A stretch of DNA of 15,513 bases. Origin: a virus. Lineage: Duplodnaviria; Heunggongvirae; Uroviricota; Caudoviricetes. The notes under the pieces were generated by a model. That model was not told where the DNA came from. It searched no databases and saw only the letters and a list, made by a program, of their open reading frames with translations. Positions 1-14,406 of this stretch are shown here, one piece after another (the stretch's first letter is position 1; each line of letters begins with the position of its first letter). Where the stretch lies: the IMG/VR virus record IMGVR_UViG_2684622769_000003, one strand, 5' to 3'. The translations under genes and the position numbers were made by a program.

Positions 1-263
1 CTCTGCACCTGCAGCCGCCGGTCGGCCTCACTCAGCCAGGGCAGACCACCGGGGTGGCTGTGGACCAGTGCCACAATCTCACCCTGCATCTCTGCCTGCA
101 GCCAGTCTTCCGGCGACATACGGAAATACGCCTCCGGCTCACCGGAGATATTCACGCAGGGGAAATATCTTTCCCCCTCCGGCGTTCTTACCACGAAGCC
201 GCACGACTCCGCTGGAGCACATCGCCGGGCGTGCGCCAGAATCGCTGATTCTGTCTCTGTCAT
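1..263 (-). CDS. K: Tail tip assembly protein K, N-terminal part (3' end lies beyond window position 1)
   Basis: Hand translation of the minus strand is open from the window edge up to an ATG at 263..261, 5 nt after the L stop. It reads MTETESAILAHARRCAPAESCGFVV...YFRMSPEDWLQAEMQGEIVALVHSHPGGLPWLSEADRRLQV, matching lambda gpK. A JAMM/MPN-type motif H-S-H-x7-S-x2-D is visible. The start I recall for the lambda annotation corresponds to the internal ATG at 119..117. Confidence 0.85.
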   Translation of the reverse strand, partial: MTETESAILAHARRCAPAESCGFVVRTPEGERYFPCVNISGEPEAYFRMSPEDWLQAEMQGEIVALVHSHPGGLPWLSEADRRLQVQ

Positions 264-268
264 GGGAT

Positions 269-967
269 TTACTGCGAAAGTTTGTTAATGGAAAGGAAGC
301 CGCCAAAGTTGCCGACGTTATTGCGAAACTTACAGCCACTCAGGCATTTGCTGCATTTATCCTTCGTGATGTCGGACGTTGGCTGGTCATATTCATCCGC
401 GACCGCCGGACCGTGATAACCGCACTCATCGCCGCGATAGGTCCAGGTGCAGGTGTTGGCCAGCATGATACGTCCCGGAAAAACAGCGCCATCTGTTTCC
501 GTCGGCGTGGACAGTACAAAAGAGGCACTCACCGCGCTCAGTTCGCTGCACTGCTCAATGCGCCAGCGGCTGATCACCTCCTGCTCCGGATCGGCGTCAC
601 TGTTTCCGTTGACGAAGTTCACCGCATCCAGAAAACGGGCGTAAACCTTACGCCGGACCACCGTTCCGCCGACCAGACTCTGTAGATCTTCCGCCATCCC
701 GGTGACCATACCGTACAGGTTAGAAACCATCAGCGTGGGGCGCGTACTGGTGCCTTTGCCATTCAGTTCAAAACCACTCCCCTGAATGGGATACGGCTGA
801 TACTGTCGCCCCTGCCAGGTGACCGGCTCACCTTTTTCGTTCTGCTCATTACAGAAAAAATAACGTTCTCCACCGACCTCTGTCAGATCGATTTCCCAGA
901 GCACCACGCTGGCCGACTGCTCCGCACGGGTGCATTCATTCAGTGTTTCCTGCCGGATATCCTGCAT
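269..967 (-). CDS. L: Tail tip assembly protein L
   Basis: ORF track 269..967, 232 aa, same length as lambda gpL; C-terminal Cys cluster (CSKCLSGC); start ATG at 967..965 overlaps the M stop. Confidence 0.93.
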   Translation of the reverse strand: MQDIRQETLNECTRAEQSASVVLWEIDLTEVGGERYFFCNEQNEKGEPVTWQGRQYQPYPIQGSGFELNGKGTSTRPTLMVSNLYGMVTGMAEDLQSLVGGTVVRRKVYARFLDAVNFVNGNSDADPEQEVISRWRIEQCSELSAVSASFVLSTPTETDGAVFPGRIMLANTCTWTYRGDECGYHGPAVADEYDQPTSDITKDKCSKCLSGCKFRNNVGNFGGFLSINKLSQ

Positions 968-1296
968 CAGTTCACCACCTGTTCAAACTCTGCGCTGAAC
1001 TCAACACGCAGCATACTGACCCGCGACGACCATTTTGCGCAGGTCACCTTTATCTGCCGCCACTCATAAGGCGGCGTCCACAGAAAGGCTTTCCAGCCCC
1101 CGTGCTCTTCCAGAAACGACTCCAGTACCATGGCCTCCTCACGGGGGACAGAAAGCGTCACGCTGTACGTTTTCAGGTTGGCATTCAGCCCGGCAGGCGC
1201 TCGCTGGGAATAGCCATCACCAAAGCGCACCTTTCTTACAGAAGGGGCCGAAGCCACATCCATACCGGGTTTCACTTTCCAGCGGAAGGTTTTCAT
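967..1296 (-). CDS. M: Tail tip protein M
   Basis: ORF track 967..1296, 109 aa, matches lambda gpM (MKTFRWKVKPGMDVASAP...); start ATG 1296..1294 overlaps the H stop. Confidence 0.93.
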   Translation of the reverse strand: MKTFRWKVKPGMDVASAPSVRKVRFGDGYSQRAPAGLNANLKTYSVTLSVPREEAMVLESFLEEHGGWKAFLWTPPYEWRQIKVTCAKWSSRVSMLRVEFSAEFEQVVN

Positions 1297-3848
1297 CGTC
1301 CACCTCCGGAGAACAGGCCACCATCACGCATCTGTGTCTGAATTTCATCACGGGCACCCTTGCGGGCCATGTCATACACGGCCTTCATCATCTGTGGACC
1401 TGGCAGACCATTCGTACCGTCGTTCTGAATCACCACGTGATTGTTCTGATTAAAATTAATGCCTTCAGCCCGCCGCATCTGCGCCGGACTTCCGGCACCG
1501 CCCACATAACCACCTTCCGCATAGCCGCGCATCAGCCGGTAGAGATTCCCCACGCCAATCCGGCTGGTTGCCTCCTTCGTGANNNNNNNNNNNNNNNNNN
1601 NNNNNNNNNNNNNNNNNNNNNNNNNNNNNNNNNNNNNNNNNNNNNNNNNNNNNNNNNNNNNNNNNNNNNNNNNNNNNNNNNNNNNNNNNNNNNNNNNNNN
1701 NNNNNNNNNNNNNNNNNNNNNNNNNNNNNNNNNNNNNNNNNNNNNNNNNNNNNNNNNNNNNNNNNNNNNNNNNNNNNNNNNNNNNNNNNNNNNNNNNNNN
1801 NNNNNNNNNNNNNNNNNNNNNNNNNNNNNNNNNNNNNNCAGCATCGCCGCCATATTCTGTGCAATACCATCAAAGGTCTGCGTGGCTGCACTTTTAACCT
1901 GTGACATACTGTCCGTGGCGCTCTCTTCCCACTCACTCCAGCCGGACTTCAGGCCTGCCATCCAGCTCCCGCGAAGCTGGTCTTCAGCCGCCCAGGTCTT
2001 TTTCTGCTCTGACATGACGTTATTCAGCGCCAGAGGATTATCGCCATACTGTTCCTTCAGGCGCTGTTCCGTGGCTTCCCGCGCTGCCTGCCGGTCAGTC
2101 AGCCCCCGGTTTTTCGCATCAATGGCTGCCCGTTTTGCCCGTTGCTGCTGTGCGAATTTATCCGCCTGCTGCGCCAGCGCATTCAGGTGCTCCTGATACG
2201 TAACCTTGTCACCAAGTGCAGCCAGCTGGCGTTTGTACTCCAGCGTCTCGTCTTTATGCGCCAGCAGGGATTTCTCCTGTGCGGACAGCTGGCGACGTTG
2301 TGCCGCCTCCTCCAGTACCGCGAACTGACTTTCTGCCTTCCACAAATCCCGGCGCTGCTGGCTGATTTTCTCATTCGCTCCGGCATGCTTCTCCAGCGTC
2401 CGGAGTTCTGCCTGAAGCGTCAGCAGGGCCGCATGAGCACTGTCTTCCTGACGATCGCCCGCATACACCTTCACGCCGGACTGTTTCGGCTTTTTCAGCG
2501 TCGCTTCATAATCCTTTTTCGCCGCCGCCATCAGCGTGTTGTAATCTGCCTGCAGGATTTTTCCGTCTTTCAGTGCCTTGTTCAGTTCTTCCTGACGGGC
2601 GGTATATTTCTCCAGCGGCGTCTGCAGCCGTTCGTAAGCCTTCTGCGCCTCTTCGGTATATTTCAGCCGTGACGCTTCGGTATCGCTCTGCTGCTGCGCA
2701 TTTTTGTCCTGTTGACGCTGTTGATCTACCCTCTTTTGGGCTGCATCCCGCTCCAGGCGTTTTTTTTCACGATCATCCCAGTAACGCGCCCGTGCTTCAT
2801 CGTTAACGAAATAATCATCCTTGCGCAGATTCCAGATGTCGTCTGCTTTCTTAAACGCAGCCTCTGCCTTAATCAGCATCTCCTGCGCGGTATCAGGACG
2901 ACCAATATCCAGCACCGCATCCCACATGGATTTGAATGCACGTGCAGTCCTGTCTGCCCAGGTCTCCAGCGTGCCCATGTTCTCTTTCAGGCGGCGGGTC
3001 TGGTCATCAAACCCTTTCGTTGCGGCCTCGTTCGCCGCCTGCAATGCCCCGGCTTCATCGCCGGAACGCTGCAACTGAGCAACATACGCAATCTGCTCCG
3101 CCGTCACGTTATGGAACTGGCGTGCCATCGCCGTCAGCCCCGACGTCGGGTCTGTGGTCAGCTTCCCGAAGGCTTCAGCGACCTTGTCCACCTCCACGCC
3201 GGATGCATAGGAGAAACGCGCCACACTCTGGCTGATGGACGCAATCTGAGCCTCACCGCTTACCCCCGCCTTAACCAGTGCGCTGAGTGACTCGCTGGTC
3301 TGGTTAAACGTCAGCCCTGCCGCCTGCCCGGCTCTGGACAGGACCAGCATACGATCTGCCGTCAGTCCCGCCTGATTACCGGAAAGGACCAGCGTTTTGT
3401 TGAAATCGGACAGGGTTGAGTTGCCCTGATACCAGGCATACGCCAGCGCACCGGTCGCCACCGCCAGCGAGGTGGCCCCCACCATCGGCAGGGTGATCGC
3501 GCCGGCAAGCCCCCTGAACATGGGGATCATCCCGCCGAAGGAGTCCTTAACCTGACCACCCTGTTGCAGCAGGATCAGCCAGGGATTCTGCCCCCCTGCA
3601 AGCTGCGTGGCCACGTCGGTGAACTGTGCAGGCAGCATACGCATGGCGGCTTTATACTGCCCGACGGAAATCCCCGCTTTCTGTGCAGCCAGCGCCTGTC
3701 GGCTCAGCGACTGTTCAACGACTGCCGCTGTTTTTTTCGCATCACTTTCCGTACCGGAAAAATGACGCCTGACTCTGGCCATCTGCTCGTCAAATCTGGC
3801 CGCATCCAGACTCAAATCAACGACCAGATCGCCTACCGGTTCAGCCAT
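1293..3848 (-). CDS. H: Tail tape measure protein H, interrupted by an N-run
   Basis: ORF track 1293..3848, 851 codons including X positions; N- and C-terminal parts match lambda gpH (MAEPVGDLVVDLSLDAARFDEQ... / ...KAVYDMARKGARDEIQTQMRDGGLFSGGGR); coiled-coil-like Q/A/K/E-rich middle; the frame is consistent across the 256-nt gap. Confidence 0.92.
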   Translation of the reverse strand: MAEPVGDLVVDLSLDAARFDEQMARVRRHFSGTESDAKKTAAVVEQSLSRQALAAQKAGISVGQYKAAMRMLPAQFTDVATQLAGGQNPWLILLQQGGQVKDSFGGMIPMFRGLAGAITLPMVGATSLAVATGALAYAWYQGNSTLSDFNKTLVLSGNQAGLTADRMLVLSRAGQAAGLTFNQTSESLSALVKAGVSGEAQIASISQSVARFSYASGVEVDKVAEAFGKLTTDPTSGLTAMARQFHNVTAEQIAYVAQLQRSGDEAGALQAANEAATKGFDDQTRRLKENMGTLETWADRTARAFKSMWDAVLDIGRPDTAQEMLIKAEAAFKKADDIWNLRKDDYFVNDEARARYWDDREKKRLERDAAQKRVDQQRQQDKNAQQQSDTEASRLKYTEEAQKAYERLQTPLEKYTARQEELNKALKDGKILQADYNTLMAAAKKDYEATLKKPKQSGVKVYAGDRQEDSAHAALLTLQAELRTLEKHAGANEKISQQRRDLWKAESQFAVLEEAAQRRQLSAQEKSLLAHKDETLEYKRQLAALGDKVTYQEHLNALAQQADKFAQQQRAKRAAIDAKNRGLTDRQAAREATEQRLKEQYGDNPLALNNVMSEQKKTWAAEDQLRGSWMAGLKSGWSEWEESATDSMSQVKSAATQTFDGIAQNMAAMLXXXXXXXXXXXXXXXXXXXXXXXXXXXXXXXXXXXXXXXXXXXXXXXXXXXXXXXXXXXXXXXXXXXXXXXXXXXXXXXXXXXXXXTKEATSRIGVGNLYRLMRGYAEGGYVGGAGSPAQMRRAEGINFNQNNHVVIQNDGTNGLPGPQMMKAVYDMARKGARDEIQTQMRDGGLFSGGGR
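1583..1838. other. Run of 256 N (unsequenced or masked) inside H
   Basis: Literal n characters in the sequence. Confidence 1.
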
Positions 3849-4281
3849 ACCGGACTCCTCCTGCGATCCCTTCTGATACTGTCATCAGCATTACGTCATC
3901 CTCCGTCATGTCCGCCACATCCGGGGAAGCGGGGATAACTTCATTCCCGTCCGGGCCAAAGCGGACACCTCCGGCAAGCCCTGCCGCTTTCTGCATCAGC
4001 ACATCATCTTCAGGCTCTTCGTCAGCCTCGCGCCGGTTCAGCAGACTGAAATCCAGCGGATGCATCTCCGGATCGCTGAAAAACAGGCTGAGCACGGTGT
4101 ACGTCAGCCCGGAAAAGTGCATATCCAGCAGAACATCATGAAAATAATGGGTACTGTAAAAGCGGTGCCAGTCGGCATACTCCGTGGATGACATCCCGGC
4201 AAGCATGGCGCGCCAGTCGGGTCGCCCCATCTCACGCGCCAGTTTCAGGGCAAAACTCAGCTCACCGTCGAACACTTTCCC
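3841..4281 (-). CDS. T: T reading frame: C-terminal extension of the gpG-T fusion, reached by a -1 programmed frameshift near the end of G
   Basis: ORF track 3841..4275 (-1 frame relative to G), translation matches the lambda T segment of gpGT; ends 5 nt before the H start; slippery heptamer lies at the G/T junction. Confidence 0.85.
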   Translation of the reverse strand, partial: GKVFDGELSFALKLAREMGRPDWRAMLAGMSSTEYADWHRFYSTHYFHDVLLDMHFSGLTYTVLSLFFSDPEMHPLDFSLLNRREADEEPEDDVLMQKAAGLAGGVRFGPDGNEVIPASPDVADMTEDDVMLMTVSEGIAGGVRYG

Positions 4282-4679
4282 GCAGAAACAGGCTCTGCAG
4301 GCCCGGCGTCCTCTGCCTGTTCAGGAGCATCATTCACCACAAACTCATACATACCGGACAGCCGGTACACCACGTTTTCAGCATGAGAAATTGCCTCTGT
4401 GGGCCAGGTGGTAAGCACTTCCTGCTCAATCTGTTTAACGGCTTCATTCATGGACGGCATCTGCGTCTTCTTCGGATGGTTATGCCACAGGGACATCGCA
4501 ACCACAAAAGCGCCGGTTCTGATGGCGTCTTCCACAGTAAACTTCCGGTTGCTGTCTGACTCCGCCTGTTCTGCCTGCCGTTTCATCAGGTCGAGATGCT
4601 CAATACGCTGCAGGGCTGACAGTTCAGAAAGCGTGACGGTCACACCGTTATGTTCAAATGATTCGGTTTTCAGGAACAT
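4257..4679 (-). CDS. G: Tail assembly chaperone G
   Basis: ORF track 4257..4679, 140 aa, matches lambda gpG (MFLKTESFEHNGVTVTLSELSALQRIEHL...); ATG at 4679..4677. Confidence 0.93.
   Translation of the reverse strand: MFLKTESFEHNGVTVTLSELSALQRIEHLDLMKRQAEQAESDSNRKFTVEDAIRTGAFVVAMSLWHNHPKKTQMPSMNEAVKQIEQEVLTTWPTEAISHAENVVYRLSGMYEFVVNDAPEQAEDAGPAEPVSAGKCSTVS
4275..4281 (-). promoter_or_regulatory. -1 programmed ribosomal frameshift slippery heptamer G GGA AAG (plus strand reads ctttccc)
   Basis: Heptamer read directly at 4275..4281, positioned at the last codons of G (..AGK..) where the T frame becomes open; this is the known lambda G-T frameshift mechanism. Confidence 0.8.
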
Positions 4680-4694
4680 CGCTGACTCTCCGGA

Positions 4695-5435
4695 TTAACT
4701 GGCGGTGACGTTGATTTCTGCAACCGCAGCAAACTCACCATTACCAGATACGACCGGAATGTTGACCTTGCCTGCAGCAACACCTTTCACGGTGATGGTC
4801 ATACCACTGACCGACACGGTGGCTTTTGTTTTATCCGCAGACACCGCACGGAAGCTCTTGTCGGTTGCGCCATCCGGCTGGAATGCCACGGTCAGCGTGG
4901 TGCTCTGCCCTTTCACTACGGAAGCACTGGCGGGTGTCACCGTCATGCCGGTCGTCGCCGTCACCGTGCTGCGATCTTCTGCCATCGACGGACGTCCCAC
5001 ATTGGTGACCTTCACCGTGCGGGTAATCACCTCCTTCGCCGTCACCGCCTTACCGATACTGCTGACCCAGCCACGGAACACATCGACCGTGCCGTTCGGG
5101 AAGCGGATTTTATAGGCACGGGTATCACCTTCATTAAACCACGCCAGCAGCGCCTGCTGCCCCTGCTCTCCGGGCATCCACGCCAGCGTGAAGCTGGTAT
5201 CTCCGGCAGATTTCTGCCCCTGCCCGGTCGCAGTCCAGTCTGCATCTTCATCATCGAGATAGCTGTCGTCATAGGACTCAGCGGTCAGTTCGCCGGGCGT
5301 CAGGTCTTTAACTTTTGCCAGACGCGACCAGTCAACGTCTGAAAGCGGGTTCGCATAAGGGTCACCGCTCCCCTTATAAACCCACAGGGTGGTCCCGGCA
5401 CCTTTCACCGGCATTGTAGGATTTGGTACAGGCAT
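4695..5435 (-). CDS. V: Major tail tube protein V
   Basis: ORF track 4695..5465; the lambda-type start [22 protein letters not shown] is the ATG at 5435..5433, giving 246 aa as in lambda gpV; C-terminal Ig-like region present. Confidence 0.93.
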
Positions 5436-5442
5436 AGCGTCC

Positions 5443-5838
5443 TCACATTTCATAGATAATGACATAAGTCAGATCGGCTGAACTCCACAGGCCCGCATCA
5501 TCGTCGCGCCGGTAGTCATAGCCGCTGGCCACCATACTGGTGATCAAATCTGACAGTGCCGGGATATCGCTCATCACAGGATAAATCCGGGACTCCATCC
5601 ACGAATCCAGCTCTGAATCCGGCACCTGAGCAGGCAGGAAAACTTCAATATGCAGCTCCGCCTGCCAGGTATCGCTGTCCAGCTCTTCGCCCGTGTATTC
5701 AGCGCCGGTGAGATAAACGGCAATTGCCGGAAAATCTTCCTCATCAAAAACAGCGGGGCGACCATCAAAAAGCGTCGCCCCGGTGTCATGCTTCTCCAGT
5801 GCATCCAGTACGGCTGCACGGAGTTCAGTATGTTTCAT
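5443..5838 (-). CDS. U: Tail terminator protein U
   Basis: ORF track 5443..5838, 131 aa, matches lambda gpU ([37 protein letters not shown]...). Confidence 0.93.
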
Positions 5839-6413
5839 CGCTTTATTACCATTCTCAGTTGATGCTGCAGCGCATAGCCCAGCTCTTTCGGAAGACGTTC
5901 ACGCCGTATCCGTTCAATATTCTGTTTAAACGCCGTGGTCAGCGGCACCGCCATCGGGATTTTCACCACATCAATGGGGTAACGGTTTTTCCCGGCCACA
6001 CGCTGCATAACATGCCACCGGCCGTTTTTCAGTTGCTGAATAAACGCGCCGGGAATACGACGGTTACCCACCACAAGCACGCTGCCGCCACCTTTCAGGG
6101 ATGAACGCTGCCCCTTTTTATGACGCCTGCGGCGGGACAGGACAACCCGCGCATTACCCAGCTTGATTACGGGCAAATCCCCCCGGTTAACTTTGATTCT
6201 GGCCTGCGGATTTTTGACCGTGGCCCTTTTCAGCCTGGCCCTTTCCTTTACCAGTTTCCGGCGTACCTTTGTCTCACGGGCAACCTGTGACGCAGACTGC
6301 GATATCGCGGATGAAGCAACGCGGTTAATGGCCATTGCGGCGGCACCGGGCACCGCCGTTTTGCTGATACGGCTGAGGTTTTCAACGGCCTGCTCAAGAC
6401 CTTTTATGGCCAT
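5835..6413 (-). CDS. Z: Tail completion protein Z
   Basis: ORF track 5835..6413, 192 aa, matches lambda gpZ; 4-nt overlap with the U start. Confidence 0.92.
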   Translation of the reverse strand: MAIKGLEQAVENLSRISKTAVPGAAAMAINRVASSAISQSASQVARETKVRRKLVKERARLKRATVKNPQARIKVNRGDLPVIKLGNARVVLSRRRRHKKGQRSSLKGGGSVLVVGNRRIPGAFIQQLKNGRWHVMQRVAGKNRYPIDVVKIPMAVPLTTAFKQNIERIRRERLPKELGYALQHQLRMVIKR

Positions 6414-6424
6414 ACATCCCCCTT

Positions 6425-6778
6425 TCAGCGGCGACGGTTAACGGCAGGCGGTACGCCCCGTCCAAGCCAGAGATGACAACTTCCGCCATCATCCGGCGAA
6501 ACCCGATCTACCCAGAAATTTTCCTCACCGATGGTCAGCGTGTCTCCACGCCGCAGCTGCCGCACCTCATCAGTCCGGACAAACAGGGACGGGCTGGAGC
6601 CTTCAACGCGCACGCCCTGTCCGGCATAGCTGATATTTTCAGGGTCATCAAAAACACCACGTATCACCGCACCTGACTGCTCACCGGATGTCATGGTGGC
6701 TGACGTTCCCATGTACCCGCGTATCGTTTCATCGGCGCGGGCAATGGCAGCATCGAACAGGTTATCGAAATCAGCCAC
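6425..6778 (-). CDS. FII: Head-tail connector protein FII
   Basis: ORF track 6425..6778, 117 aa (MADFDNLFDAAIARADETIRGYMG...), matches lambda gpFII; the start codon is GTG. Confidence 0.92.
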   Translation of the reverse strand: MADFDNLFDAAIARADETIRGYMGTSATMTSGEQSGAVIRGVFDDPENISYAGQGVRVEGSSPSLFVRTDEVRQLRRGDTLTIGEENFWVDRVSPDDGGSCHLWLGRGVPPAVNRRR

Positions 6779-6789
6779 AGCGCCTCCCG

Positions 6790-7188
6790 TTATTGCATTC
6801 TGGCCAGGCCGCGCTCTGTCATTTCGGCTGCCACACCGGCAGAGACACGAAACGCCGTTCCCGGCAGCACAAATGCCACAGGTTTATCCCGCGTGGCGTG
6901 AAGTGCATCAGTATGCAGCGTCACCAGTGCCACGACCGTGACCAGTTCAGCCGTATCCTGAATCACGGTATCCGGCTGCGCTGATACCACCTCATTTTCA
7001 TGCCCGGTCAGCACATTTTCCCGGCTGAGAGGGGTGTCCTGACCGGCAGTTTCATCCGTGTCATCAAGCTCTTCTTCCAGCTCTGCCACACGAAGCGCCA
7101 GTTCTTCTTTCGTTCCCGTCAAACTGACATCGCGGTTCAATTGCTCACCCAGCTCCTGAAGACGGGCAATCAGTTCATCTTTCGTCAT
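6790..7188 (-). CDS. FI: DNA packaging / head assembly protein FI
   Basis: ORF track 6790..7227; the lambda-type start MTKDELIARLQELGEQL is the ATG at 7188..7186, giving 132 aa as in lambda gpFI. Confidence 0.9.
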   Translation of the reverse strand: MTKDELIARLQELGEQLNRDVSLTGTKEELALRVAELEEELDDTDETAGQDTPLSRENVLTGHENEVVSAQPDTVIQDTAELVTVVALVTLHTDALHATRDKPVAFVLPGTAFRVSAGVAAEMTERGLARMQ

Positions 7189-7229
7189 GAACTCCTCCAC
7201 AGAGAGAAAATGGCCCCGAAGGGCCATGA

Positions 7230-8255
7230 TTACGCCAGTTGAACGGACACGAACTCATCAGGATCAGCCAGCAGCATCAGCGGTGCTGACTGAATCATGG
7301 TGAACTCACGCGCCGGATCGCCGGTGGTCACCCAGTTTTTCGGGTAACGGGCAGAAGCGTTAATGCCTTCGCGCTGTGCGTCCGCATCCTGAATGCAGCC
7401 ATAGGTGCGCAGACCGCGAGCCTGAGTGTTCCCCAGCACCATCGTGTTGTCCGGCAGGAAGTTCTTTTTGACGCCGTTTTCCACGTACTGTCCGGAATAC
7501 ACGACGATGGCCACATCGCCATACATTCCCTTATAGGACACCGCTTTGCCCAGGTCTTTTACCGCTGTCTCCAGCTCGGAATGAGAGCCGCGACGGGTAT
7601 CCAGCTTCTCCTTGACGGCTTTGAAGGAACGGAACAGCGCCCAGCCTTTCGGGTCAAACACGATGATATTCACCACACCGCTGGCGTTCAGCGCGTAGGC
7701 TTCGATATCGTCGGTCGGGTCATACGTGGACTTGTCACGCTTGCTCCACTCCGTGACGCCGGACTGTGTGATGTTGTTCGCCGCACTGCGGCCCATATCC
7801 ACCTCAACCGGATCGAAGGCTTCACCGGTCATGGTGTATTTGCCCTTGAGCACGGCAGAAACTGCCTGCATCTCTTCGACCTGAGCAATGGCCAGCTCTT
7901 CGTCACGCATGTTCTGCATGATGATGCGACGGCGGCGGTAAGCCGGGTCCGCCAGATTCTGCGGATCTTCATCCGGCAGGCGACGCAGGGTCATCTGCGG
8001 ATTCACCTCATGCTTGGGTTTGACATATCCCGGCGTAAATTCAGAGGTGGAGCCGCCACGGGAACGGATAACCTCACCGGAAACAATCGGCGAAACGTAC
8101 AGCGCCATGTTTACCAGTCCCGGAATTTGTGAGAGATAGACTTTCTCCGTAGTGAAGGGATAGCTCTCACGGAAAAAGAGACGCAGAAACAGCGGATCAA
8201 ACTTAAATTTCTGCTCATTTGCCGCCAGCAGCTGGGCGGTTGTGTACATCGACAT
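7230..8255 (-). CDS. E: Major capsid protein E
   Basis: ORF track 7230..8282; the lambda-type start MSMYTTAQLLAANEQKFKFDPLF is the ATG at 8255..8253, giving 341 aa as in lambda gpE. Confidence 0.94.
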   Translation of the reverse strand: MSMYTTAQLLAANEQKFKFDPLFLRLFFRESYPFTTEKVYLSQIPGLVNMALYVSPIVSGEVIRSRGGSTSEFTPGYVKPKHEVNPQMTLRRLPDEDPQNLADPAYRRRRIIMQNMRDEELAIAQVEEMQAVSAVLKGKYTMTGEAFDPVEVDMGRSAANNITQSGVTEWSKRDKSTYDPTDDIEAYALNASGVVNIIVFDPKGWALFRSFKAVKEKLDTRRGSHSELETAVKDLGKAVSYKGMYGDVAIVVYSGQYVENGVKKNFLPDNTMVLGNTQARGLRTYGCIQDADAQREGINASARYPKNWVTTGDPAREFTMIQSAPLMLLADPDEFVSVQLA

Positions 8256-8310
8256 AAAAAAATCCCGTAAAAAAAGCCACACAGGCGGCCTTTAGTGATG
8301 AAGGGTAAAG

Positions 8311-8643
8311 TTAAACGATGCTGATTGCCGTTCCGGCAAACACGGTCCGTTTTTTCGTCTCGTCGCTGGCAGCCTCCGGCCAGAGCACATCCTCATAACG
8401 GAACGTGCCGGACTTGTAGAACGTCAGTGTGGTGCTGGTCTGGTCAGCAGCAACCGCAAGAATGCCAACGGCAGCACCGTCGGTGGTGCCATCCCACGCA
8501 ACCAGCTTACGGGTGGAGGTGTCCAGCATCAGCGGGGTCATTGCAGGCGCTTTCGCACTCAATCCGCCGGGCGCGGTTGCGGTATGAGCCGGGTCACTAT
8601 TGCCCAGCGGCTGGTAATGGGTAAAGGTTTCTTTGCTCGTCAT
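8311..8643 (-). CDS. D: Capsid decoration protein D
   Basis: ORF track 8311..8649; the start [12 protein letters not shown] is the ATG at 8643..8641, giving 110 aa as in lambda gpD. Confidence 0.94.
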
Positions 8644-8652
8644 AAACATCCC

Positions 8653-9160
8653 TTACACTGGTGTGTTCAGCAAATCGTTAACGGCATCAGATGCCGGGTT
8701 ACCTGCAGCCAGCGGTGCCGGTGCCCCCTGCATCAGACGATCCAGCGCAGTGTCACTGCGCGTCTGTGCACTCTGTGGTGCTGCGNNNNNNNNNNNNNNN
8801 NNNNNNNNNNNNNNNNNNNNNNNNNNNNNNNNNNNNNNNNNNNNNNNNNNNNNNNNNNNNNNNNNNNNNNNNNNNNNNNNNNNNNNNNNNNNNNNNNNNN
8901 NNNNNNNNNNNNNNNNNNNNNNNNNNNNNNNNNNNNNNNNNNNNNNNNNNNNNNNNNNNNNNNNNNNNNNNNNNNNNNNNNNNNNNNNNNNNNNNNNNNN
9001 NNNNNNNNNNNNNNNNNNNNNNNNNNNNNNNNNNNNNNNNNNNNNNNNNNNNNNNNNNNNNNNNNNNNNNNNNNGCAGCCTCGGTATCCAGCACAGCCTG
9101 CACGGACAGGCCGGTATATGCCGACACCTTCTGTGCAAACATCCGGCGGGTTGCATCCAT
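8653..9160 (-). CDS. nu3: Scaffolding protein Nu3, translated from an internal in-frame start within C; interrupted by the same N-run
   Basis: An ATG at 9160..9158 is in the C frame at C residue 239 (MDATRRMFAQKVSAYTGLSVQAVLDTEA...), where the lambda Nu3 start falls; shares the C stop at 8653. Confidence 0.75.
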
Positions 9161-9854
9161 CCGGGACTGCAATGTTTCCCGGACATCATCCGGTAGATGG
9201 CTGTAGGGGTTGCCATCCACCTTATGGCTGCCGCTGTAAATCAGCGTGATTTCCACGCCCTGTTTCTCCAGTGCAGCGCCGTAATTACTGTGAGCCATCA
9301 TGACGCCGATGGAGCCTGTCCGGGCGGTCTGCGTGACCAGACGCCGGGAGGCGGCACTGGCAAGCAGCTGACCTGCGCTGCAGTTCATGTCATTGGCCAG
9401 CGCCCATACCGGCTTTATGTCACGCACACGGGCGATGATGTCAGCGCAGTCAAATGCTCCCGCCACCATTCCGCCCGGTGTGTCCATATCGAGCAGAATG
9501 CCGTCCACCATCGGGTCGCTGGCAGCCTGTTGCAGACGGGCGATAATGCCGTTGTAACCGGTCATCCCCGAGTACGGCTGCAGCGCCCGCGTCCGGCTGA
9601 CCAGCGTGCCGGACACCGGCAGCACGGCGATGCCGTTCATTACCTGATAACTGCGGGCCTGTCGTGGTCCGTCATCATCACCGGATAACGCCAGCGCCGC
9701 GGGTGCCTCTCCGGCAGTCAGGCTGTCGCCGGATACTGCATCCGTCAGGCAGCTGATCCCAAGCTGGCCTGCAAGCGCACAAAAGAAAACCCGCGCATAG
9801 GCGGGTTCAAGCATCAGCGGCTCATTAAAAGCCATGCTGGCAATATGCGGGAGA

Positions 9855-9874
<20 letters not shown>
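8653..9874 (-). CDS. C: Capsid assembly protease / scaffold protein C, interrupted by an N-run; the two flanks are in different frames as written
   Basis: The N-terminal part (GTG at 9874..9872, then TAELRNLPHIASMAFNEPLMLEPAYARVFF...) and the C-terminal part (...AAPQSAQTRSDTALDRLMQGAPAPLAAGNPASDAVNDLLNTPV, stop at 8653..8655) both match lambda gpC. The span is 1222 nt, not a multiple of 3. The start lies 20 nt inside the end of B, as in lambda. Confidence 0.85.
8786..9074. other. Run of 289 N (unsequenced or masked) inside C/Nu3
   Basis: Literal n characters in the sequence. Confidence 1.
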
Positions 9875-13620
<3,746 letters not shown>

Positions 13621-13646
<26 letters not shown>

Positions 13647-14166
13647 TCAGCAACCCCGGTATCAGTTCATCCAGCGCGGCTGCTTTGTTCATGGCTTTGA
13701 TGATATCCCGTTTCAGGAAATCAACATGTCGGTTTTCCAGTTCCGGAAAACGCCGCTGCACCGACAGGGGGATCCCGTCGAGAATACTGGCAATTTCACC
13801 TGCGATCCGCGACAGCACGAAAGTACAGAATGCGGTTTCCACCACTTCAGCGGAGTCTCTGGCATTTTTCAGCTCCTGTGCGTCGGCCTGCGCACGCGTA
13901 AGTCGATGGCGTTCGTACTCAATAGTCCCTGGCTGGAGATCTGTCTCGCTGGCCTGCCGCAGTTCTTCAACTTCCCGGCGCAGCTTTTCGTTCTCAATTT
14001 CAGCATCCCTTTCGGCATACCATCTTATAACGGCGGCAGAGTCATAAAGCACCTCATTACCCTTGCCACCGCCTCGCAGAACGGGCATTCCCTGTTCCTG
14101 CCAGTTCTGAATGGTACGGATACTCGCACCGAAAATGTCAGCCAGCTGCTTTTTGTTGACTTCCAT
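13621..14166 (-). CDS. nu1: Terminase small subunit Nu1
   Basis: ORF track 13621..14166, 181 aa (MEVNKKQLADIFGASIRTIQNWQEQGMPVLRGGGKGNEV...), matches lambda gpNu1 with an N-terminal winged-HTH; ATG at 14166..14164. Confidence 0.95.
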
Positions 14167-14343
14167 TGTTCATTCCACGGACAAAAACAGAGAAAGGAAA
14201 CGACAGAGGCCAAAAAGCCCGTTTTCAGCACCTGTCGTTTCCTTTCTTTTCAGGGGGTGTTTTAAATAAAAACATTAGGTTACGGCGAAGAAGAACGGAA
14301 ACGCCTTAAACCGGAAAATTGTCATAAATAGCGAAAACCCGCG
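14167..14343 (-). other. cosB-like terminase binding region with three R-element repeats
   Basis: A perfect 16-bp inverted pair, agaaaggaaacgacag at 14191..14206 and ctgtcgtttcctttct at 14232..14247, plus a third related copy (aacggaaacgcc) near 14292..14303. These sit between the Nu1 start and cosN, as the gpNu1 R sites do in lambda. Confidence 0.75.
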
Positions 14344-14355
14344 CGCCTTCCGCCC
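14344..14355 (-). other. cosN-equivalent 12-mer (cohesive-end position); reads GGGCGGAAGGCG on the minus strand, not the canonical lambda 12-mer
   Basis: Flanked by ...ACAGGTTACG upstream and CGCGGGTTTTCGC... downstream in phage orientation, both as in lambda; the 12 nt between them were read directly. Confidence 0.7.
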
Positions 14356-14391
14356 CGTAACCTGTCGGATCGCCGGAAAGGACCCGCAAAA

Positions 14392-14406
14392 TGATAATAA
14401 TTATCA
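14392..14406. promoter_or_regulatory. Perfect 7-1-7 palindrome TGATAATAATTATCA, identical to the Fur-box core consensus; function unproven
   Basis: Read directly; part of a 17-bp perfect palindrome atgataataattatcat at 14391..14407, about 36 bp outside cosN and about 150 bp upstream of the plus-strand RHH gene. Confidence 0.3.

Follow-up and report, generated by a model that had tools for sequence, protein, structure and literature searches.

The terminase nicking site of the lambda-like phages, cosN, lies between cosQ and cosB, and its 16-bp core comprises the 12-mer of the cohesive end together with a conserved CG dinucleotide outside each nick (PMC9026076, PMC4669245). A two-fold symmetry of 10/16 has been published for the lambda core (PMC9026076). 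The flanking CG dinucleotides, the left half of the 12-mer (bp 1-6) and cosQ, a highly conserved 7-bp site, are conserved, and differences at bp 7-12 are common among the lambda-like phages (Feiss et al. 2015, PMC4669245): N15 and phiD326 differ from lambda at bp 9 and 12, and Gifsy-1 does so at bp 8, 9 and 11. Many mutations of the right half have a minimal phenotype, and in the part of the work of Xu & Feiss (1991) that is recounted in PMC4669245 the change G2C costs about 10-fold and its symmetric counterpart, C11G, has no phenotype. Lambda with the cosN of N15 gives 132 vs 120 pfu per cell, and a 2-bp mismatch between cohesive ends costs about 4-fold (PMC4669245). By the documented rule, the half of cosN nearest cosB may vary freely, since the terminase large subunit (TerL), anchored by the small subunit (TerS), nicks regardless of the sequence there.

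Here we describe a stretch of viral DNA of 15,513 nucleotides (Caudoviricetes, IMG/VR record IMGVR_UViG_2684622769_000003), referred to below as the window, in which the left half of the 12-mer is that of lambda and the right half reads AAGGCG. The published tolerance consists of single changes and the 2-bp difference of N15 (PMC4669245), whereas the window has five simultaneous changes. Variation of the class to which AAGGCG belongs has already been described and explained, and the comparisons below make it very probable, in our estimation, that the site is a functional natural allele of cosN. An initial annotation of this DNA had implied that the change was unusual, an impression that does not survive a reading of the literature, where the variation at bp 7-12 is on record together with the fact that lambda terminase is indifferent to it (PMC4669245).

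The cos region of the window

The elements of cos in the window are as follows.

14344..14355, minus strand: cosN cohesive-end 12-mer, allele GGGCGGAAGGCG (bp 1 = 14355, bp 12 = 14344)
14342..14357, minus strand: 16-bp cosN core, the 12-mer plus 5'-CG-3' outside each inferred nick position
14379..14385, minus strand: cosQ heptamer GGGTCCT (bp -30..-24), with the sequence and spacing of lambda
14291..14306, minus strand: R3 of cosB, the critical binding site of TerS (Nu1), AGGCGTTTCCGTTCTT (bp 50-65), 16/16 identical to lambda
14187..14290, minus strand: rest of cosB, with the I1/IHF region, R2 and R1 (bp 66-169), 7 differences from lambda

In phage orientation, which is the minus strand, the sequence runs ...ACAGGTTACG GGGCGGAAGGCG CGCGGGTTTTCGC..., or with wider flanks ...ATCCGACAGGTTACG GGGCGGAAGGCG CGCGGGTTTTCGCTA..., and the 12-mer is exactly the one that the initial annotation had quoted at 14344-14355. 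That annotation had given the canonical lambda end correctly: alignment to the reference lambda cos (NC_001416, bp 1-12) gave GGGCGGCGACCT and not the 12-mer of the window, and GGGCGGCGACCT is found again in a second lambda record (PV340536) and in a feature of phage DE3 annotated 'cos site'. The two 12-mers differ at bp 7, 8, 9, 10 and 12 and nowhere else, with C11 common to both, so that the left half, GGGCGG, is identical at 6/6 positions and the right half is AAGGCG in the window vs CGACCT in lambda. The comparison also bears out the further statement that 5 of the last 6 positions differ between flanks that are almost unchanged. The 15 bases on either side of the 12-mer are those of lambda, and the CG dinucleotide is present at both nick flanks (...TTACG, then GGGCGGAAGGCG, then CGCGGG...). 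The retention of C11 would be meaningful if C11G were deleterious; this idea was dropped, as it is G2C that is deleterious and C11G has no phenotype (PMC4669245).

Farther from the 12-mer, the window differs from lambda once in bp -19..-1, once in bp 13-49 and nowhere in R3 (coordinates bp 50-65 from PMC9026076), and bp 13-65 contain no indel, which leaves the spacing between cosN and R3 as it is in lambda. The region bp -35..-20 contains a single difference, and it falls outside the cosQ heptamer, whose exact position in lambda we take to be bp -30..-24. The seven differences in the rest of cosB include C71 and C97, both of which are statistically linked to AAGGCG, as discussed below. The one change within the spacer between cosN and R3, at window position 14321 (cos bp 35), is A to C (ATGACAATTTT vs ATGAAAATTTT), and the same change is found in 7/74 AAGGCG sites and 2/133 canonical sites. 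A change in the flank is also seen in the Stx1a-converting phage Stx1_9793 (LC645428), whose 12-mer is canonical and whose bp 13-18 read CGAGGG vs CGCGGG in lambda, i.e., with C to A at bp 15, directly beyond the conserved CG outside the bottom-strand nick.

Among the described systems closest to the window is lambda itself, with which it has in common the place of cosN between cosQ and cosB, bp 1-6, C11, the CG flanks, the cosQ heptamer, R3 and the spacing, as well as a terminase that is 98-99% identical. It departs from lambda at the five positions of the right half and in symmetry, which by our count is 8/16 for the core of the window vs 10/16 for lambda (the same figure as published) and for N15; the central symmetric pair bp 6/7 and the pair 3/10 have been lost, and the pair 4/9 has been gained. 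The cosN of N15 and phiD326 (GGGCGGCGTCCG) is likewise a natural right-half variant of a lambda-type end and has G12 in common with the window. The record for N15 annotates its virion end, GGGCGGCGTCCG, as a sticky end unlike that of lambda. The ends of N15 have been physically determined, and lambda terminase was shown by experiment to use the N15 site as well as its own (PMC4669245). N15 differs from lambda at 2 positions (9 and 12) and the window at 5; the window is not of the N15 type either, its right half differing from CGTCCG at bp 7, 8, 9 and 10. Moreover, the cosB of N15 is a simple one of its own, and its TerL has about 65% identity with that of lambda (PMC4669245), whereas the allele in the window stands beside a lambda-type cosB and a lambda-type TerL, gpA. 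Gifsy-1 (bp 8, 9 and 11) and mEp213/LLS (GGGCGGCGCGCT) also vary only within bp 7-12 and conserve the left half (PMC4669245, PMC12315714), but their sequences are different, their changes are fewer and their phage backgrounds are more divergent.

If the window follows lambda, Nu1 would bind R3 in cosB and position gpA, which would nick the top strand immediately 5' of bp 1 and, on the bottom strand, between bp 12 and 13; by homology these nicks are placed between 14356/14355 and between 14344/14343, respectively. Virion DNA would then carry 12-nt 5' overhangs, with 5'-GGGCGGAAGGCG at the left end and its complement at the right end. The only sequence needed would be that required for nicking by terminase, namely the left half, the flanking CG, cosQ and a correctly spaced R3, all of which are unchanged here, and the right half would be the part that a cosB-anchored TerL tolerates. 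Since the two ends of a chromosome are cut from copies of one duplex site, they will be complementary at cyclization whatever the 12-mer, and the energies for pairing of an end with its own complement are -18.6 kcal/mol for the allele of the window vs -19.0 for that of lambda. The end of the window pairs with a lambda end only through GGGCGG, at -9.5 kcal/mol; the corresponding value for the lambda-N15 combination is -15.3.

A change confined to the nicking site could also be the mark of a decaying prophage that is packaging-defective, its right half mutated beyond use and its DNA no longer packaged from this site. Such a reading would account for the alteration of 5/6 adjacent positions and the fall in symmetry to 8/16, and it would agree with the outcome of our scan for virion termini, in which no phage record, IMG/VR contig or metagenome contig starts or ends at the variant 12-mer. 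The changes in the window, however, lie only in the half of cosN where mutations have a minimal phenotype (PMC4669245), and the other elements of cos are intact.

Prophage context

The window aligns collinearly with bp 13-14394 of lambda (95-98% nucleotide identity), and leftwards from cos its genes are Nu1, A, W, B, C, D, E, FI, FII, Z, U, V, G, T, H, M, L and the start of K. All of the packaging and structural genes that can be read are intact. Three runs of N interrupt the sequence, and these are listed here with the two terminase genes.

13621..14166, minus strand: Nu1, terminase small subunit (TerS), intact ORF of 181 aa, 98.4% identical to lambda Nu1
11721..13646, minus strand: A, terminase large subunit (TerL), which nicks cosN, intact ORF of 641 aa, 99.4% identical to lambda gpA
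10583-10888: run of 306 N in the portal gene B
8786-9074: run of 289 N in the protease/scaffold gene C-Nu3
1583-1838: run of 256 N in the tape-measure gene H

Lists of open reading frames split the portal gene B, and likewise gene C, over two frames, which at first sight speaks for a decayed prophage. The lambda segments that the N runs replace are, however, 241, 387 and 262 bases long, and because these lengths are unlike those of the runs, ORF finders and tblastn report changes of frame in B and C that are spurious. We have accordingly rejected the B and C frameshifts as a sign of a defective prophage and regard them as artefacts of the N runs and not as mutations. Just past one of these runs the window has a mosaic joint at the C-terminal end of gpH, the last 96 residues of which (window 1293-1580) are 80% identical to lambda as compared to 97% for the rest of H. 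The gpA of the window differs from that of lambda by T151S, D185E, L404R and T466I, none of which is specific to AAGGCG. The change L404R (codon 404, window 12435-12437) occurs in 2/22 gpA proteins linked to AAGGCG and in 0/39 linked to the canonical site.

Distribution of the AAGGCG allele

For a search of 5,426 complete E. coli genomes we built a 42-base query in which megablast can seed only across the variant bases. The 42-mer of the window was found exactly in four genomes from unrelated sources, and about 64/5,426 genomes cover at least 80% of it. The canonical 42-mer is present in 4,436/5,426 genomes, at 8,380 places, and the canonical cos is roughly 70 times commoner than the AAGGCG allele. 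One AAGGCG prophage is that of APEC E14033 (NZ_CP126948). When the flanks were held fixed and the 12-mer was left free, the scan returned 130 canonical sites, 2 with AAGGCG, 1 with GGGCGGAGACCT (PhiR70_1) and 1 with GGGCGACGACCT. The last two are variants of a single base with flanks otherwise identical to lambda: PhiR70_1 (PV340577) has C to A at bp 7, and IMG/VR 2778261513_000005, the source of GGGCGACGACCT, has G to A at bp 6, the final position of a left half that is supposedly conserved.

A scan of IMG/VR was directed at non-canonical sites only (those in which bp 9 is not A) and was tallied among the first 120 matches listed. Among these 120 matches, the N15-type right half CGTCCG accounts for 49 and AAGGCG for 48, followed by CGTCCT with 10 and about a dozen rare alleles that include CAGGCG, CAGGCT and CGGCCT. 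The variant 12-mer is present as well in 31 metagenome contigs (human gut and food samples) and in 24 plasmids of PLSDB, all of them predicted to be non-mobilizable, ~33-92 kb and mostly 42-49 kb in size, and hosted by E. coli, Shigella sonnei, E. albertii and E. fergusonii. Two deposited phages have AAGGCG, YDC107_1 (genus Ravinvirus) and PhiR46_1. The latter, a linear plasmid-prophage that resembles N15, has ParAB, annotated telL/telR sites and a terminase, head and tail module that is of lambda type and complete. ECOR13 is named as the host in its record, a field from which one may suppose that the phage forms plaques.

At least 8 different upstream (cosQ-side) backgrounds carry AAGGCG, in every case with a lambda-type cosB flank and, where it can be read, a lambda-type gpA. 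Four AAGGCG loci, including IMG/VR 2645728091_000007, have a divergent TerS that is ~35% identical to lambda Nu1 and 47% to the TerS of N15, and the allele is thus used with at least two types of TerS. Near-identical copies of lambda cos also turned up in three unrelated bacteria, Raphidiopsis brookii D9, Aeromicrobium sp. PE09-221 and Alicyclobacillus fastidiosus (plasmid unnamed3), which have lambda bp 1-199 at 98.5-99.5% identity and nothing else of the segment compared (lambda bp 1-16000); this looks like the cos cassette of a cosmid or fosmid vector left in the assemblies and not like phage biology.

This distribution bears on two of the readings that the initial annotation had put forward. 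The first, a sequencing or assembly error confined to the window, might seem plausible for an assembly with gaps or masked stretches, such as the three N runs, but the 42-mer recurs in four complete genomes and the 12-mer in well over 100 independent assemblies, and an error would not copy a pre-existing allele of the population base for base. We have therefore rejected it, and consider the chance that it is correct to be negligible. The second is the dead site: decay would be expected to differ from one prophage to another, whereas here one and the same 12-mer recurs across well over 100 assemblies, on no fewer than 8 upstream backgrounds, and in non-mobilizable phage-plasmids spread over four species.

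In the searchable text of the literature the variant 12-mer is absent from phage papers; the one match, in a paper on a Ginkgo promoter, was set aside as a chance match. A survey of the natural cosN variants of lambda-like phages has reportedly been made by Vahanian et al. 2017 (Virology 509:140; cited in PMC9026076 and PMC12315714), and AAGGCG may well be among the variants that it covers.

The terminase genes beside the two alleles

Intact Nu1 and A genes stand beside 33/38 (87%) of the AAGGCG sites for which the downstream sequence can be read, vs 36/65 (55%) of the canonical sites, and the A genes linked to AAGGCG have a pN/pS of 0.047. The terminase genes that accompany the allele are thus intact more often than those beside the canonical cos and are under purifying selection, which argues against a site that has fallen out of use. 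With the other cos elements and all readable genes intact and the 12-mer recurrent, a packaging-defective prophage appears to us very unlikely. The reading that the evidence supports is another that the initial annotation had offered, namely a different cohesive-end sequence, given a recurrent allele in which the required elements of cos are intact.

It can also be asked whether cutting at AAGGCG depends on a terminase large subunit that is co-adapted to it, in which case site and enzyme would form a specificity pair separate from that of lambda. Residues 9, 21 and 466 of gpA do differ in frequency between the allele classes (0.36-0.51), but no residue is fixed between them (22 proteins linked to AAGGCG and 39 to the canonical site), the gpA of the window itself has the lambda residues at 9 and 21, and two identical gpA proteins are each found beside both alleles. 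Synonymous divergence between the classes is 0.075, equal to the diversity within them (0.064-0.077), and it is at the N-terminal codons closest to cos (residues 9 and 21) that the associations peak, as physical linkage predicts. Compared with lambda gpA, the 27 full-length gpA genes that adjoin AAGGCG have identities of 98.9-99.8%, and those that adjoin canonical sites fall within the same range. No co-evolution of terminase with the allele was found either residue by residue or by synonymous divergence, and the specific terminases of lambda and N15 have been described as lacking specificity for cosN (PMC4669245). A dedicated enzyme is, in our view, highly improbable.

Origin of the right half

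The AAGGCG allele is linked to particular polymorphisms of cosB: C at bp 71 is present in 42/46 carriers of AAGGCG vs 13/129 canonical sites, C at bp 97 in 40/46 vs 17/129, and G at bp 137 in 39/46 vs 26/129. This linkage is incomplete. Perceval, Stx1_9793 and PhiR47_2 have the canonical 12-mer with a cosB that differs from that of the window at only 2/177 positions, and PhiR46_1 and YDC107_1 have the 12-mer of the window with a cosB that differs at 5/177. Measured against the nearest cosB haplotype, that of Perceval, Stx1_9793 and PhiR47_2, the window differs at 5 of the 6 bp vs 2 of the 177 bp that follow (Fisher p = 8e-8), and the contrast persists (P = 1.3e-5) even if the neighbouring terminase gene's divergence at synonymous sites is taken as the rate for the 6 bp. 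Clustering so far beyond chance indicates that the right half is a deeply diverged block that has moved between backgrounds, and not the product of local point mutation. The invariance of bp 7-12 within allele classes had been considered as proof of purifying selection on the block and was abandoned, since with 6 sites and a polymorphism of ~6% in cosB the finding of zero polymorphic sites is not significant.

The 6-bp block would have passed from one cos background to another by recombination at or beside cos. Ordinary crossovers in the conserved flanks are one possibility. Another is the segregation of a cohesive-end heteroduplex after packaging between unlike cos sites, a process demonstrated experimentally for lambda and N15 after cos-to-cos packaging (PMC4669245) and an attractive one because the crossover falls exactly at the nick; with five mismatches it may be inefficient. 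As to how the block itself could have arisen, a stepwise path can be drawn from CGACCT through CGGCCT, (CAGCCT), CAGGCT and CAGGCG to AAGGCG, and 3/4 of the intermediates have been seen, in lambda-like phages that are more distant.

Implications

The allele has some practical consequences. Programs that find cos by means of the canonical 12-mer will miss ~1% of the lambda-like cos sites of E. coli and a sizeable share of those of N15-like phage-plasmids, and oligonucleotides directed against the sticky ends of lambda will not anneal to those of AAGGCG phages.

It is conceivable, though we think it rather doubtful, that ends of the AAGGCG type define an incompatibility group of cohesive ends, with bp 7-12 selected for the matching of ends and not for nicking. 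This would explain why the right half exists as a few discrete, deeply diverged alleles, each nearly invariant, despite the lack of constraint from terminase. Recombination between co-infecting or co-induced lambda-like phages could then give rise to mixed ends, and a chromosome with one end from a canonical cos and the other from an AAGGCG cos would pair only via GGGCGG and would probably fail to cyclize. Mixed packaging would thereby be penalised, the majority allele would be favoured and intermediates would be rare.

For general biology the import of the allele is small, in that AAGGCG is one more example of the documented freedom of the right half. It is also, of the right halves found with a cos and terminase otherwise identical to those of lambda, the one that diverges most, and as such it offers a convenient natural substrate for learning how far the tolerance of the right half extends and how many cohesive-end mismatches are survivable at cyclization.
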